6,604 nucleotides of DNA, from the IMG/VR virus record IMGVR_UViG_3300029653_000099; one strand, given 5' to 3'. Shown here piece by piece: positions 2,456 through 6,604 of this stretch. The notes under the pieces are model-generated. The model saw only the letters and a program-made list of their open reading frames with translations. It searched no databases and was not told the origin of the DNA. The translations under genes and the position numbers were made by a program. Each line of letters begins with the position of its first letter. Position 1 is the stretch's first letter. Source of the DNA: a virus. Taxonomy: Duplodnaviria; Heunggongvirae; Uroviricota; Caudoviricetes.

Positions 2456-3307
2456 CTATTGCGCGCTTTCGGGGTTGCTGTTTACTGGCTGCCCCTTCTT
2501 AGTTTTACGGCTGCGCGTAACTGATGCGGCTGATTTGACCTTTTTCTCTTCGCGAGTGATGGCAATTTGTTTTTTTACATTTTCAATATCTGCCAGGCGA
2601 TATATTTTTGCCTGCGGCCAGCGGTCGCAGATGATCGGTTCTATAGAGTCATAAAGGCTAAATTTTGCTTTCTCGAATTTCCCGTTGATGATGATTCCAT
2701 CACGGAGAGTTTCATCGCAGATAAACACACCACACAGCGGCACATGGTAACTAACTGATTTACCATCATTGTAGTTAGGGCTACTGGAAATGTAATGGAC
2801 GCGCAACATTGTTTCGCTAAAGCCGTGTACACGCATACGGAATTTTTCATCCTCCGGGTACTGCTTCATTAGCTCTTTTGTTGCTTCCAGGTTCTCTATG
2901 TATTTCGCACTGTGCTCATTGATCCCCGCGCTTTTCTGGATGCGAATGTCCTTATCAATCAGATGAATAATGCGGCCAGCGGTCATGTTGACGCTGTTCA
3001 CAGCTTCTGTCTGATAAGTTGTAACCTTACGCACACCGCGAAGGATGTTAGGCACTGGATATAAAATAGTCTTTGGGATATTGAGGTCTGGGTACTGTTC
3101 CAGTTCCCGCGCCATTAAAGTCCATTTATCAATTTCAGCCTGAATGCTGTCCGTTTCTTTGAACGGCAGAACGACAACCGGGCGAACAGGACGACCGTCG
3201 CTGGCGGCATCAACGTGTTGGGCGCGTGCAACAGCTTTTTTTAGAAAGAGATCCCTGAAGCTGACGAACTCCTGGTACAGTTGTTCGCCGTAGACATAAT
3301 TTATCAT
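2456..3307 (-). CDS. c1: C1 repressor of lysogeny (283 aa), immC
   Basis: 283-aa ORF convergent with pacB. Length and N-terminus (MINYVYGEQLYQEF...) match my recollection of P1 C1. Strong RBS GGAGGAGGA 6 nt upstream of the ATG on the minus strand. Lies next to coi and loxP-cre as in P1. Confidence 0.88.
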   Translation of the reverse strand: MINYVYGEQLYQEFVSFRDLFLKKAVARAQHVDAASDGRPVRPVVVLPFKETDSIQAEIDKWTLMARELEQYPDLNIPKTILYPVPNILRGVRKVTTYQTEAVNSVNMTAGRIIHLIDKDIRIQKSAGINEHSAKYIENLEATKELMKQYPEDEKFRMRVHGFSETMLRVHYISSSPNYNDGKSVSYHVPLCGVFICDETLRDGIIINGKFEKAKFSLYDSIEPIICDRWPQAKIYRLADIENVKKQIAITREEKKVKSAASVTRSRKTKKGQPVNSNPESAQ

Positions 3308-3329
3308 TGATCCTCCTCCAGAATTGACA

Positions 3330-3372
3330 TGGCCAACAACTCACAGCGGATTACACTGGGAGTTGTTGGCCA
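3330..3372. repeat. Perfect 13-bp inverted repeat (TGGCCAACAACTC / GAGTTGTTGGCCA) with a 17-nt spacer, in the coi-c1 intergenic region
   Basis: Arms at 3330..3342 and 3360..3372 are exact reverse complements. No T-tract follows on either strand, so it is not a canonical intrinsic terminator. Confidence 0.85.
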
Positions 3373-3374
3373 CC

Positions 3375-3418
3375 ATTATAGAAGGATCCAACGAAAATAA
3401 TAGATTTATTAGTGCATT
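3375..3418 (-). promoter_or_regulatory. Putative c1-proximal sigma70 promoter (-10 TATAAT on the minus strand at 3375..3380) with an overlapping C1-operator-like site (AATGCACTAATAAATCT, 14/17, minus strand 3402..3418)
   Basis: Perfect TATAAT hexamer on the minus strand about 70 nt upstream of the c1 start. Operator-like 17-mer overlaps the -35 region and the coi stop codon. The -35 hexamer itself is weak. Confidence 0.35.
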
Positions 3419-3627
3419 TATTGTGAGTCTGGCTGGTTAGTGGCCATGAGATATTCGATTGTGTCAGTGAGATCATCCAGGTCGTCTTGGGTGATGCGGT
3501 ACTCCTGATTGGATATCTTTGAGTAGTGTTCAGCAATGGCGCGGGCAGCGTCGGTTTCGGCGGGGTCTACAGATAAAGCGTTAGAGCAATGTCTAACGTC
3601 GTCGATGGTTGGTGGAATGAAAGCCAT
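3418..3627 (-). CDS. coi: Coi, C1 inactivator (69 aa)
   Basis: 69-aa ORF directly upstream of c1 on the same strand. Length and position match P1 coi as I recall it. RBS GTGAGG 7 nt upstream of the ATG on the minus strand. Confidence 0.8.
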   Translation of the reverse strand: MAFIPPTIDDVRHCSNALSVDPAETDAARAIAEHYSKISNQEYRITQDDLDDLTDTIEYLMATNQPDSQ

Positions 3628-3820
3628 AATTATGCCTCACTGTATTGACAACACAGAGCCTGAAGCTCTGACCTACTGTTTCACCCATGATCCATGCTGG
3701 GGTAATCCTACAACATTGCGCTGTGTGTAAGATGAGCAATGCATAGCTGTAATGCCGTTGTATAAGGTTTCCCTGTTTGCTCATTTCCTTCTGAGCCGCT
3801 CTACAACGCTGAAGACACAT
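3593..3820 (-). CDS. Possible small ORF in the imcA/imcB position upstream of coi (75 aa; alternative internal start at 3784); coding status doubtful
   Basis: Only ORF over 60 aa on the minus strand between coi and the operator-bearing promoter. Overlaps the coi start by 35 nt. No convincing RBS (GAAGGAA abuts the internal ATG with 1-nt spacing). Cys/Trp/His-rich composition atypical of a real protein. Confidence 0.2.
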   Translation of the reverse strand: MCLQRCRAAQKEMSKQGNLIQRHYSYALLILHTAQCCRITPAWIMGETVGQSFRLCVVNTVRHNYGFHSTNHRRR

Positions 3821-5492: not shown

Positions 5493-5509
5493 CCATTAGC
5501 GCGCAAATG

Positions 5510-5526
5510 ATTGCTCTAATTCTTTG
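5510..5526 (+). promoter_or_regulatory. C1-operator-like site ATTGCTCTAATTCTTTG (13/17; first 11 positions exact) between cre and the downstream ORF
   Basis: Direct match to the conserved 5' half of the operator consensus, 17 bp upstream of the next ORF start. Confidence 0.4.
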
Positions 5527-5542
5527 GTATTTATGGTGACAT

Positions 5543-5854
5543 GTGAGAAAGGATTTCAACATCGACGGAAAATATGTAGTGCTGTCTGTAAGCACTAATA
5601 TTCAGTCGCCAGCCGTCATTGTCACTGTAAAGCTGAGCGATAGAATGCCTGATATTGACTCAATATCCGTTGCGTTCCCTGTCAAAAGTATGCGTAGTGC
5701 TGAACATTTCGTGATGAATGCCACCGAGAAAGAAGCACGGCGCGGTTTTGCCAAAGTGATGGCCGAGTTTGGCGAATTTTTGGGGCACGTTGACAAAGCC
5801 CTTTCAATCAGTTCAGCAAGGTCCAAAGCGTTAACAGCTTCCATGCTGAAATAA
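5543..5854 (+). CDS. Hypothetical protein (103 aa) downstream of cre, in the position of P1 cra (cre-associated)
   Basis: GTG start with GGTGA 3 nt upstream, so the exact start is uncertain. Same strand as cre; stop TAA at 5852..5854 followed by a hairpin. No motif recognised. Confidence 0.5.
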   Translation: MRKDFNIDGKYVVLSVSTNIQSPAVIVTVKLSDRMPDIDSISVAFPVKSMRSAEHFVMNATEKEARRGFAKVMAEFGEFLGHVDKALSISSARSKALTASMLK

Positions 5855-5879
5855 AAAAAGCCTGGCAAGGAGCCAGGCT
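5853..5879 (-). terminator. Intrinsic terminator oriented for the minus strand: 8-bp stem (AGCCTGGC / GCCAGGCT), 5-nt loop, then a 6 to 7-U tract on the minus strand
   Basis: On the plus strand it is an A7 tract followed by the hairpin with no downstream T-tract, so it is canonical only for leftward transcription. It sits right at the 3' end of the plus-strand ORF. Confidence 0.5.
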
Positions 5880-5984
5880 GCACAAAAGAGCGGGTTTGTA
5901 TTCCGCATTCAATCAATCAAGAAGGAGTATAGTACACAGGTACTGAAGTGAAAAAATGTGATTCGCGATAAACAAATAACTTTA

Positions 5985-6014
5985 ATTGCTCTAATTGATT
6001 GCTATAATTGAGCC
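5985..6014 (+). promoter_or_regulatory. C1-controlled ref promoter region: operator-like ATTGCTCTAATTGATTG (5985..6001, 14/17), overlapping second partial copy ATTGCTATAATTGAGCC (5998..6014), and extended -10 TGcTATAAT (6000..6008)
   Basis: Perfect TATAAT with an upstream TG, inside two overlapping operator-like repeats about 95 nt upstream of ref. Consistent with recalled C1 repression of ref through operator Op2. Confidence 0.55.
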
Positions 6015-6068
6015 GCAGTTTTTGTCAACTACGAAGACGCTGCCATTACTTCACTCCTTGACATCATT

Positions 6069-6094
6069 GGCGGCCATTAGGCCGCCTTTTTTTT
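6069..6094 (+). terminator. Intrinsic terminator-like hairpin (7-bp GC stem GGCGGCC / GGCCGCC, loop ATTA) followed by T8, ending 5 nt before the ref ATG
   Basis: Stem arms are exact reverse complements, followed by eight consecutive T on the plus strand. Confidence 0.65.
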
Positions 6095-6099
6095 GCCAT

Positions 6100-6537
6100 A
6101 TGAAAACAATCGAACAAAAACTTGAACAGCGCCGCGAGTGGCAGAAGGCAGCCAGAGAACGAGCGATCGATCGGCAACGGGAAAAGTTGGCTGACCCCGC
6201 CTGGCGAGAATCGCAATATCAGAAAATGCGGGATTCTATCGACCGCCGTATCGCTAAACAGAAAGAGCGCCCACCAGCCAGCAAAACGCGGAAAAGTGCG
6301 GTAAAAATAAAATCTCGTGGCTTGAAGGGGCGAACACCGACGGCGGAGGAACGGACCATCGCCAATGCTCTTGGCACTCTCCCCTGCATTGCCTGCTACA
6401 TGCATGGAGTAATATCTGAAGAGGTGTCTCTGCACCATATCTCCGGTCGTACCGCGCCGGGTTGTCACAAAAAGCAATTGCCCCTTTGTAGATGGCACCA
6501 CCAGCATGCAGCACCGGCTGAAGTAAGAGGGGTTTGA
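6100..6537 (+). CDS. ref: Ref-like HNH endonuclease (recombination enhancement function); 145 aa from the MKTIEQ start, apparently shorter than P1 Ref
   Basis: N-terminus MKTIEQKLEQRREWQKAARERAIDRQREKLADP... and the HNH-like core (LHHISGRTAPGCHKKQLPLCRWHHQHAAP) match my recollection of P1 Ref. A highly basic N-terminal region precedes the core. The TTG at 5995 in the ORF track is an in-frame extension through the operator and terminator and is unlikely to be the real start. Confidence 0.75.
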   Translation: MKTIEQKLEQRREWQKAARERAIDRQREKLADPAWRESQYQKMRDSIDRRIAKQKERPPASKTRKSAVKIKSRGLKGRTPTAEERTIANALGTLPCIACYMHGVISEEVSLHHISGRTAPGCHKKQLPLCRWHHQHAAPAEVRGV

Positions 6538-6577
6538 GGGCCAATGATGTAAAAAACCACGCTAAGGAGGTAATTCA

Positions 6578-6604
6578 TTGTTTAAATTGAGATTTAACGG
6601 CCTC
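6578..6604 (+). CDS. Possible 5' end of a gene starting with TTG after a strong RBS (AAGGAGG 6564..6570, 7-nt spacing); runs off the window
   Basis: Consensus Shine-Dalgarno followed by TTG TTT AAA TTG AGA... Only 9 codons are visible. Confidence 0.3.

Follow-up and report, generated by a model that had tools for sequence, protein, structure and literature searches.

The leader of ref in the P1-like phage-plasmid analysed here is probably a P1-type regulatory leader, acting as a two-layer brake on a host-harming nuclease. Its arrangement, a repressor-controlled promoter followed by a terminator placed before the gene, was reported for phage P1 in 1988 and is already known; the title of that report (Windle, Laufer and Hays, J Bacteriol 1988;170:4881) names attenuator-antiterminator control of P1 ref. 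Newly described here are a competing antiterminator helix, predicted to be able to form before the terminator 3' arm is made; a terminator stem whose evolution is 10-15 times slower than that of c8 third-codon positions, its loop being free to vary; retention of the terminator in ref-less relatives, whose leaders otherwise drift about neutrally; and an equivalent layout with another hairpin in a second Ref clade, where the changes appear from the sequences to be compensated in both helices.

Organization of the ref leader

The window, by which we mean the whole 6,604-nt stretch of DNA that was analysed, derives from a P1-like phage-plasmid and carries pacB, c1, coi, cra, cre, c8 and ref. Over the whole intergenic region between c8 and ref (5850-6130) its identity to P1 is 98%, and from the -10 element to the ref ATG the two sequences differ by a single base, at 6041. 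P1 coordinates were converted to window coordinates with an alignment offset of +4023 (P1 record AF234172), and the positions given for P2ref, Oref and P1ref in this GenBank record match those of the window. The features considered below are listed here.

5985-6001, plus strand: C1 repressor operator ATTGCTCTAATTGATTG (Oref of P1, formerly Op1/Op2a), placed from the P1 annotation at 1962-1978 via the offset
5998-6014, plus strand: second operator-like copy ATTGCTATAATTGAGCC, overlapping the first operator, read from the sequence and a repeat search
6000-6008, plus strand: extended -10 TGCTATAAT of the C1-controlled promoter (P2ref of P1), read from the sequence; the P1 -10 at 1980-1985 maps to 6003-6008
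6015-6043, plus strand: 5' leader hairpin, predicted by MFE and centroid folds of 6015-6110 and by growing-transcript folds
6024-6036, plus strand: invariant 13-mer GTCAACTACGAAG, comprising the loop and 3' strand of the 5' hairpin
6040-6046, plus strand: 5' strand CUGCCAU of the predicted antiterminator helix, pairing with UGGCGGC at 6068-6074; the fold uses GCUGCCA, 6039-6045
6040-6067, plus strand: predicted second sigma-70 promoter (P1ref of the P1 record), placed from the P1 annotation at 2017-2044 with the offset of +4023
6069-6086, plus strand: terminator (attenuator) hairpin GGCGGCC-ATTA-GGCCGCC, with 7/7 G:C pairs, a 4-nt loop and -15.0 kcal/mol
6087-6094, plus strand: T8 tract, beginning 0 nt after the stem; expected 3' end of the RNA
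6095-6099 and 6100-6102, plus strand: GCCAT spacer, then the ref ATG, so that T8 ends 5 nt 5' of the ATG
6100-6537, plus strand: ref (RecA-dependent HNH nuclease) with a Shine-Dalgarno-less ATG; 92% identity to P1 Ref over residues 1-143

Two overlapping ATTGCT(C/A)TAATTGA repeats (5985-5998 and 5998-6011) are present, the first coinciding with Oref, and the repeat search lists the same repeats as direct pair D2 (5982-5994 and 5995-6007). The extended -10, composed of TG at 6000-6001 and a TATAAT hexamer at 6003-6008 that nearly all relatives retain, lies inside the C1 operator. The operator-like repeats that the preliminary description had seen around this element are thus confirmed by the sequence at 5985-6011, and the overlap of ATTGCTCTAATTGATTG with the promoter points to ref as a putative member of the C1-controlled operons of P1. 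The 17-bp asymmetric C1 operator consensus we take to be ATTGCTCTAATAAATTT. Because its -35 element is poor (about 5980-5985), the C1-controlled promoter is omitted by a generic promoter scan; it depends on its extended -10, from the position of which transcription would start at about 6015. The internal promoter, with a -35 at 6040-6045 (CTGCCA) and a -10 at 6062-6067 (CATCAT), matches 8 of 12 consensus positions in the window and is likewise absent from the generic scan. Its transcripts would start near 6074, within the terminator 5' arm, and would bypass the terminator, so that this promoter could provide ref mRNA without read-through. A minus-strand TTGACA (6028-6023) was discarded, the sequences at hand (TATAGC or ATAGCA) offering no acceptable -10.

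The hairpin is located 61 nt past the -10 hexamer on the same strand and combines the properties of an intrinsic terminator: a G+C-rich stem, a short loop, an immediate U-run, a position downstream of a same-strand promoter, and a structure under selection in which the stem stays paired and the loop varies. A strict scan (seven perfect pairs, at least six of them G:C, and at least seven T in the next eight positions) returned two sites in the window, the terminator at 6069-6094 and a minus-strand site at 5879-5859, and none in 300 dinucleotide-preserving shuffles of the window. The GC-rich hairpin with T8 that had been proposed about 60 nt past the -10, ending 5 nt before the ref ATG, was borne out in both structure and position. 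Termination on the minus strand at the same hairpin is ruled out, as AATGATG follows the stem in that direction. Most transcripts are predicted to end near 6092-6094, yielding from the C1-controlled promoter an RNA of about 78-80 nt. Such a by-product is to be expected, and a separate function for it is not supported.

The ref gene of the window is a truncated copy, interrupted by a transposon end after residue 143 of 186. Homology to P1 stops near 6529, and the PF16786 (RecA_dep_nuc) domain is incomplete, the match spanning profile positions 1-64 of 103. No Shine-Dalgarno sequence precedes the ATG, as had been noted earlier: the best anti-SD duplex within 25 nt 5' of it reaches -2.4 kcal/mol, as weak as those of cre and c8 in the window and weaker than those of pacB (-5.7) and cra (-7.1). 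Relatives carry frame-shifting indels just upstream (T7-T10, G/GA), and coding therefore begins at the 6100 ATG. These indels also dispose of an N-terminal extension of Ref; the TTG at 5995, considered as the start of such an extension or of a leader peptide, is in the ref frame but lies upstream of the inferred transcription start site. An antisense ORF on the minus strand (6064-6507, 147 aa) gave no Pfam match.

Competing folds of the leader RNA

The MFE and centroid fold of 6015-6110 has an energy of -24.3 kcal/mol (z -3.1). In transcripts ending at 6075-6079, the antiterminator is the predicted best fold, at -17.4 kcal/mol vs -7.8 kcal/mol without the helix; in the full-length leader, the terminator prevails (-24.0 kcal/mol, pair probability 1.00). 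The alternative helix uses the terminator 5' arm and excludes the terminator, as the antiterminator of an attenuator would. Pairing at the base of the 5' hairpin (6015-6019 with 6039-6043) is in turn predicted to sequester part of the antiterminator strand, which would make this hairpin an anti-antiterminator. Folding of relatives returned the antiterminator as the best fold in most ref-containing P1-type leaders but not in some (L012, L025), and the register of the 5' hairpin differs among P1-clade variants.

A search of the leader for a sensor found no ATG or GTG and no small ORF preceded by a Shine-Dalgarno sequence, and hence no leader peptide; the leader TTG codons lie in a frame that is not conserved, owing to indels. 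A conserved minus-strand mini-ORF (Shine-Dalgarno plus ATGGC..., 5-6 codons) was rejected, its frame changing between variants. Searching 5500-6604 against Rfam in E-value mode yielded no family at threshold. The sub-threshold matches, namely suhB/mmgR (22.5 bits vs a cut-off of 41) and, on the minus strand, SorX, GcvB and MicX, are driven by the terminators and were dismissed.

Conservation of the leader with and without ref

The hairpin and T-run are retained in 83 of the 88 c8-anchored loci with enough sequence. In 21 unique leaders all stem cells are paired; changes affect three stem pairs only, are one-sided and preserve G:U pairing, and the loop occurs in five variants. Nucleotide diversity is 0.009 and 0.014 in the stem arms, 0.30 in the loop and 0.005 in the T-run, vs 0.14 at c8 third-codon positions, and the terminator is thus under strong purifying selection. 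The T-run measures T7-T10 in relatives and T6 in ref-less loci, and the spacing from hairpin to ATG is closely preserved within the P1 clade. Within that clade, no compensatory change reached significance for the terminator, the antiterminator or the 5' hairpin. Three rearranged loci (L004, L072 and L019), in which homology is lost at about 6049, were set aside as uninformative.

Constraint on the rest of the leader depends on what follows it. Where ref is present, the operator and -10, the antiterminator strand and the linker show a diversity of 0.046-0.068, about half the neutral value; where ref is replaced, the same elements reach 0.15-0.29, about neutral (~0.15), and only the terminator and the 13-mer GTCAACTACGAAG stay constrained. 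Replacement was found in 15 loci, where ref has given way to an inverted cassette of an Op51-like operator, c4-region, icd and ant, the homology stopping precisely where the T-run ends. These ref-less relatives retain promoter, leader and terminator beside the convergent ant gene, with no same-strand ORF downstream. The 13-mer has a diversity of 0.017 vs 0.14 at c8 third-codon positions, and it stays invariant in ref-less loci despite drift of the strand with which it pairs (0.289), and also in loci lacking everything to the right of 6049.

A second clade of Ref proteins, here clade B, was found in a different gene neighbourhood. It includes the proteins of Salmonella and Klebsiella phage-plasmids (L091, L092), with 65-68% identity to P1 Ref, and four others (L100-L103) with 77-99% identity to the Salmonella protein. 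In L092 and L100-L103, a C1-operator-like site and TATAAT are accompanied by a leader, the hairpin GACGGTC-TTCG-GACCGTC and a T-run. The operator-like site of L091 is more diverged and its -10 reads TATTAT; its hairpin has the same clade B stem but a TACG loop. The T-run is T5 in L092, T8 in L100-L103 and T7 in L091. Relative to the P1 clade, positions 2 and 6 of the terminator arm are changed, and so are their partners in the 3' arm. The putative clade B antiterminator is ACUGUCA/UGACGGU, its upstream strand having changed together with arm positions 2 and 6. Two antiterminator pairs thus differ between the clades on both sides (G:C to A:U and C:G to U:A), a covariation that represents a single evolutionary split in a hand-built alignment, with the clade B strand picked from its fold. 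The probability of a chance 7-mer of such complementarity somewhere in the leader is presumably about 0.03, as a rough estimate. In some clade B members, GGGA or GGAG occurs after the T-run and before the start codon, so that the absence of a Shine-Dalgarno sequence is not general. The motif CUCCYUGAC recurs in clade B leaders. Among Ref homologues of at most 58% identity (Pantoea, Enterobacter, Leclercia and Klebsiella prophages, and Buttiauxella), no promoter-terminator leader was found.

Proposed mechanism, alternatives and known systems

In the mechanism that we propose, C1 bound to the operator overlapping the extended -10 would shut the promoter in the lysogen. As a second layer, transcripts from about 6015, as well as any read-through from cre-c8, would be halted at the terminator 5 nt before the ref ATG. 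Read-through into ref would be set by pairing of the antiterminator strand (6040-6046) with U plus the 5' arm (6068-6074) before the 3' arm is made, an interaction that the outer pairs of the 5' hairpin would oppose. The balance between terminator and antiterminator would be kinetic or modulated by a factor; a constitutive kinetic leak is possible, and a protein factor might conceivably serve as the sensor of the leader. To our knowledge, P1 has no known RNA-binding antiterminator. Handles on the input that sets read-through into ref are offered by the antiterminator strand positions, by the compensated clade B and by the ref-less variants that keep only the terminator.

Published expression data are in line with such a brake. 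C1 control of ref has been demonstrated in earlier work: after C1 inactivation, ref mRNA rises 73-fold by rt-qPCR (PMC4713147), and termination is therefore not absolute. Its peak comes later and lower than those of the C1-controlled ssb, dmt and kilA (PMC4713147), which is consistent with a leaky or delayed attenuator; two P1vir RNA-seq papers do not report where ref transcripts begin or end. Ref cuts lysogenisation 40-fold and raises ciprofloxacin lethality (PMC4713147), and the safe carriage of this host-harming protein by a plasmid prophage is explained by a double lock of repressor and attenuator. Attenuation or antitermination control, as suggested in the preliminary description, accordingly finds support in the title of the 1988 report and in the constraint on the terminator, and also in the mutually exclusive antiterminator helix predicted here and the apparent compensation of both helices in clade B.

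It is possible, though we do not favour it, that hairpin and U-run are mainly a module-boundary terminator, stopping rightward transcription of the constitutive cre-c8 unit and from the C1-controlled promoter before it enters the next module; the antiterminator would then be incidental, and ref would be supplied through leakage or from the internal promoter. The hairpin at 5859-5879, right after c8, has a T-run on the minus strand only, and that at 6069-6086 is the first plus-strand intrinsic terminator downstream of cre-c8; the end of homology at the T-run in the 15 cassette-bearing loci, and the restriction of constraint to the terminator and one 13-mer in loci without ref, also fit a boundary. 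This leaves unexplained, however, why the terminator lies downstream and not upstream of the ref promoter, and why the leader is constrained in the presence of ref; clade B, moreover, has the same promoter-leader-terminator-ref order and a compensated antiterminator strand in another neighbourhood. A boundary role is in any case compatible with the two-layer brake and not exclusive of it.

Unlikely is a main role of the hairpin and U8 in translation or mRNA stability, the U-tract recruiting ribosomal protein S1, the hairpin protecting the 5' end and termination being weak in vivo. The Shine-Dalgarno-less ATG 5 nt past U8, the A-rich first codons, the tight hairpin-to-ATG spacing in the P1 clade and the ref mRNA clearly produced upon induction would suit it, but hairpin and T-run are equally conserved in loci without ref, some clade B members carry GGGA or GGAG before the start, and a 7-bp all-G:C stem with U8 is a canonical strong terminator, which the 1988 title calls an attenuator.

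We give a rather low probability to the promoter-leader-terminator unit, or at least GTCAACTACGAAG plus the terminator, having a function of its own, either as an RNA of about 80 nt under C1 control or as a DNA or RNA site for a factor. If true, this would explain retention of the unit when the inverted c4-icd-ant cassette replaces ref, and the same factor could provide the attenuator with its input. Lower still do we rate a free-standing C1-controlled sRNA gene of about 80 nt, with a single-stranded linker containing CUCCUUGAC, whose product would target phage or host mRNAs in trans, ref being merely downstream. The architecture is sRNA-like (5' hairpin, linker, terminator hairpin and U-tail), the unit has its own promoter and terminator and persists without a downstream same-strand ORF in ref-less relatives, and CUCCYUGAC is the motif recurring in clade B. 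Against this, promoter and operator, 5' stem and would-be seed drift about neutrally in ref-less lineages (0.16-0.29 vs 0.15), the putative seed linker having a diversity of 0.177 vs 0.153 neutral; no Rfam family matches; and a linker and loop duplex scan of the 94-kb ref-less plasmid pTA13-2 found none beyond shuffled controls (best non-self duplex -28.3 kcal/mol vs -21.7 to -27.6 kcal/mol for shuffled linkers). That the hairpin arose by chance and has no function we regard as practically refuted by its conservation: the generic scan that finds 7 terminator-like sites vs 6.6 in shuffled sequence is too loose to discriminate, whereas the strict criteria yield 0/300, the stem evolves far more slowly than third-codon positions and clade B conserves the structure with a different sequence.

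Known leaders offer several parallels to the two-layer brake. Small RNAs derived from leaders by premature termination include rnTrpL of Sinorhizobium and the riboswitch-derived SreA and SreB of Listeria, and a short terminated leader RNA is likewise the expected main product of the ref promoter; unlike these, the ref leader has no trans target in the pTA13-2 scan, and its putative seed is neutral in ref-less lineages. The leader of E. coli rnd (RNase D) reportedly has a GC hairpin and U8 before the start codon that are needed for translation, as described by Zhang and Deutscher (PNAS 1992), and recruitment of S1 by its U-tract has been reported. Both rnd and ref have a terminator-like hairpin and U8 directly 5' of the start codon; unlike in rnd, the element of the ref leader persists where no gene follows, and the title under which it was published terms it an attenuator.

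With the classical attenuators (trp and pyrBI leaders, bgl/sac antiterminator proteins, T-box and riboswitches), the ref leader shares mutually exclusive terminator and antiterminator helices and an upstream helix competing with the antiterminator, as predicted from its folds; unlike them, it is without a leader peptide, a Shine-Dalgarno sequence or an Rfam leader or riboswitch match. Its closest counterpart is the ref region of P1 (P2ref/Oref, leader and attenuator), which is this very locus in a closely related phage. Gene order is shared, and the window does not differ from P1 in C1 operator, extended -10, hairpin, T8, GCCAT spacer or ATG. The C at 6041, in place of the T of P1, turns an antiterminator G:U pair into G:C, with a predicted truncated-transcript fold of -17.4 kcal/mol vs -14.9 kcal/mol with the P1 base, and weakens the predicted internal promoter -35 (CTGCCA vs TTGCCA in P1); ref itself is cut at residue 143 by the transposon end, unlike in P1. 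The comparative data leave the classification of this element unchanged, as a known regulatory leader.

Setting of the ref leader

The open reading frame order of the window, together with 93-97% identity of its final 1.1 kb to phages P1, P7, SJ46, RCS47 and other punaviruses, indicates that it is a P1-type phage-plasmid. Among the records found, the closest was a 454-kb plasmid of E. coli ATCC 98082 (99.7% identity over 5880-6250). Alignment with P1 gave 98% identity over 5850-6130 and a single difference between the -10 and the ref ATG, at 6041 (C in the window, T in P1). Being cut off after residue 143 of 186, the window's ref copy is probably non-functional. P1 homology stops near 6529 and is followed by GGGGTTTGAGGGCCAATGATGTAAAAAACCACGCTAAGGAGG, which we take to resemble a Tn3-family terminal inverted repeat; the 454-kb plasmid has the same junction, and IS26 lies about 0.8 kb beyond it.

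Features of the window
Whole window: open reading frames in the order pacA'/pacB, c1, coi, cra, cre, c8, ref
c1: minus strand, 283 aa
4461-5492: cre, 343 aa
5543-5854: c8
5879-5859, minus strand: strict intrinsic terminator, AGCCTGGC-TCCTT-GCCAGGCT plus T7, overlapping the c8 stop codon
5954-5926, minus strand: promoter-like TTTTCA-17-TATACT, right of the minus-strand terminator
Starts at 5985 and 5998: two overlapping operator-like repeats
6000-6008: extended -10, TGCTATAAT
6069-6086: terminator hairpin, GGCGGCC-ATTA-GGCCGCC
6087-6094: T8
6100: ref ATG, after a GCCAT spacer following T8
~6530-6604: ref truncation junction, also at 3650-3720 of compared locus L005

The elements of the preliminary description, an extended -10 within operator-like repeats, a GC-rich hairpin with T8 ahead of the ref ATG and a ref start lacking a Shine-Dalgarno sequence, are all present, no anti-SD duplex upstream of the ATG being stronger than -2.4 kcal/mol. 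The isolated hairpin folds at -15.0 kcal/mol. A generic terminator scan, too permissive to discriminate, returned 7 sites in the window against 6.6 expected and ranked 6069-6094 best; strict criteria retained this site and minus-strand 5879-5859, and none of 300 dinucleotide shuffles held any.

Folding and conservation of the leader

The full leader (6015-6094) is predicted to fold at -24.0 kcal/mol into a 5' hairpin and the terminator, the latter with a pair probability of 1.00. For a transcript truncated downstream of the terminator's 5' arm (at 6075 or 6079), the best predicted fold pairs 6040-6046 with 6068-6074 (-17.4 kcal/mol, versus -7.8 for the upstream part alone). This predicted antiterminator and the terminator are mutually exclusive, and the former additionally shares bases with the outer pairs of the 5' hairpin, giving the modelled leader a classical 1:2 / 2:3 / 3:4 layout. 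Predicted folds behave alike in most ref-containing P1-type leaders, and C6041 makes the window's antiterminator helix about 2.5 kcal/mol stronger than that of P1. The P1 clade itself shows no covariation bearing on the antiterminator either way. AAGGAGTATAGTA, upstream of the promoter (5922-5934), and TACTTCACTCCTT, within the linker of the leader (6047-6059), show 85% complementarity; since both arms are present only in read-through transcripts from c8, such transcripts could fold differently at the attenuator from those of the C1-controlled promoter.

A C8-anchored collection of 80 viral contigs and 3 genome contigs, with the window and plasmid and P1 loci fetched earlier, provided 88 scorable loci. 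The hairpin and T-run are followed by ref in 68 of these and occur without ref in 15; in the other five they were not scored as present (three rearranged, one with Ns across the hairpin, one diverging before the leader). All stem cells are paired in 21 unique leaders, where one-sided C-to-T changes yield G:U in 3 of 7 pairs and disrupt none. Measured against a near-neutral yardstick of 0.14 (c8 third-codon positions), diversity was 0.009 and 0.014 in the stem arms and 0.005 in the T-run, versus 0.30 in the loop (ATTA, ATCA, TAAA, GAAA or GCAA). A near-invariant, always-paired stem around so variable a loop points to strong selection on the hairpin as a structure.

A search with P1 Ref recovered homologues down to ~45% identity, and upstream regions were read for nine of them and for 22 viral contigs retrieved by searching with two of the nine. 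A second Ref clade (clade B) resides in ~86-94 kb Salmonella and Klebsiella plasmids whose gene neighbourhood is unlike that of P1, with Ref 65-68% identical to P1 Ref in loci L091 and L092 and 77-99% identical to the Salmonella protein in L100-L103. Its element order is that of P1: operator-like site, -10, leader with a 5' hairpin, terminator hairpin, T-run and start codon. In all six loci a C1-operator-like site (e.g., ATTGCTCTAATAATTAT and variants) lies ~20-120 nt upstream of ref and the start codon follows the T-run by 10-16 nt; outside L091, TATAAT is followed by TGAG as in P1. The hairpin itself differs from that of P1 (GACGGTC-TTCG-GACCGTC plus T8; T5 in L092, T7 and loop TACG in L091). 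L091 is the most divergent, with a more diverged operator-like site (ATTGTTCTAATATTTTG), a TATTAT -10 and no evident 5' hairpin. Clade B ref sits after NinX-like and other small genes, yet has P1-type operator-like sites in front; a CUCCYUGAC leader motif is common to both clades.

Directly 3' of the clade B 5' hairpin, ACUGUCA pairs with UGACGGU, that is, U plus arm positions 1-6. Relative to P1, the 5' arm changes from G to A at position 2 and from C to U at position 6, matched by C to U and G to A in both the 3' arm and the antiterminator strand. This apparent two-sided compensation, drawn from a single evolutionary split and a hand-assembled alignment, argues more strongly than any other result that both helices matter. 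A Pantoea element with 61% identity carries an operator and GCCGCC-TCCG-GGCGGC plus T7 ~100 nt upstream of the annotated start; among the homologues examined, those at ≤58% identity have no promoter-terminator leader upstream.

Ref-less relatives and other readings

Promoter, leader, hairpin and T6 are all shared by pTA13-2, pO111_2 and 13 viral contigs; homology goes no further than T6, and 3 nt past it lies the end of a convergent ant gene. The whole pTA13-2 sequence shows that an inverted cassette has taken the place of ref between leader and mat; in addition to a c4-like region, icd and ant, this cassette has a palindromic C1 operator of its own. Such immI-like inverted cassettes occur at L002/L090 (pTA13-2 55095-56990), L003 (pO111_2) and viral contigs L017, L023, L029, L035, L043, L050, L058, L059, L076 and L084; pTA13-2 holds three icd-ant modules (2496-3757, 50092-51422, 55095-56425). 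The ref/cassette breakpoint falls exactly at the end of the leader T-run.

Only the terminator (stem 0.026 and 0.0, T-run 0.0) and the 13-mer GTCAACTACGAAG (0.019) are still constrained in ref-less lineages. The operator/-10 (0.164), 5' stem (0.289), antiterminator strand (0.153) and linker (0.177) drift there at about the neutral 0.153 or above, whereas with ref they stay at 0.046-0.068, which suggests that the regulatory parts of the leader are tied to ref. The persisting terminator would also act as a module boundary, stopping cre-c8 and promoter transcripts. The 13-mer (6024-6036; diversity 0.017-0.019) is essentially invariant in all P1-like leaders, kept in ref-less loci despite drift of its pairing partner (0.289) and in rearranged loci missing everything right of ~6049. 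It does not match a C1 operator, is unconvincing as a promoter element on both strands and has no evident function.

P1 record AF234172 places a second predicted promoter, P1ref, at the equivalent of 6040-6045 and 6062-6067; transcripts from this internal promoter would begin at ~6074, within the 5' arm, and so avoid the terminator. The window has a weakened version of it, matching 8 of 12 consensus positions. With its SD-less ATG just after U8, the leader recalls that of E. coli rnd, where a U-run reportedly drives translation; a comparable role for U8 would fail to explain an element kept without ref. A trans-acting sRNA is disfavoured by the drift of all but the terminator and 13-mer in ref-less leaders and by a target scan of the ref-less plasmid pTA13-2 that gave nothing above shuffled controls. 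The leader matches no Rfam family and contains no leader peptide.

Conservation across the region peaks in the c8-ref intergenic stretch (5855-5940), where diversity is 0.016; it is 0.075 in the c8 coding sequence and 0.14 at c8 third-codon positions. The minus-strand promoter-like site and terminator of this stretch point to a leftward RNA of ~67 nt, which folds at -21.6 kcal/mol (z -3.3) and gives no Rfam hit at threshold. Alternatively, the terminator may halt leftward transcripts, e.g., those of the ant cassette in plasmids lacking ref.

Comparison with the P1 ref attenuator

The P1 record annotates a sigma-70 promoter, P2ref, with its -10 at window 6003-6008, and a monovalent C1 operator, Oref, at 5985-6001, and marks no terminator at the homologous positions. 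Windle et al. reportedly found in 1988 that deleting the terminator raised Ref activity. In P1, ref is C1-controlled and H-NS binds CGATAAA in its regulatory region (window 5966-5972); C1 inactivation raises ref mRNA 73-fold by 30 min, with a lower and slightly later peak than ssb, dmt and kilA (Ronayne et al., 2016, PMC4713147). Termination upstream of ref is therefore incomplete. In the same study ref lowers lysogenisation 40-fold, which makes tight control biologically sensible. The attenuation or antitermination control proposed in the preliminary description is upheld: the feature is real and strongly selected, and it is the ref attenuator known from P1-type phages, a kind of system already known, to which our comparative results add incremental support and testable positions.
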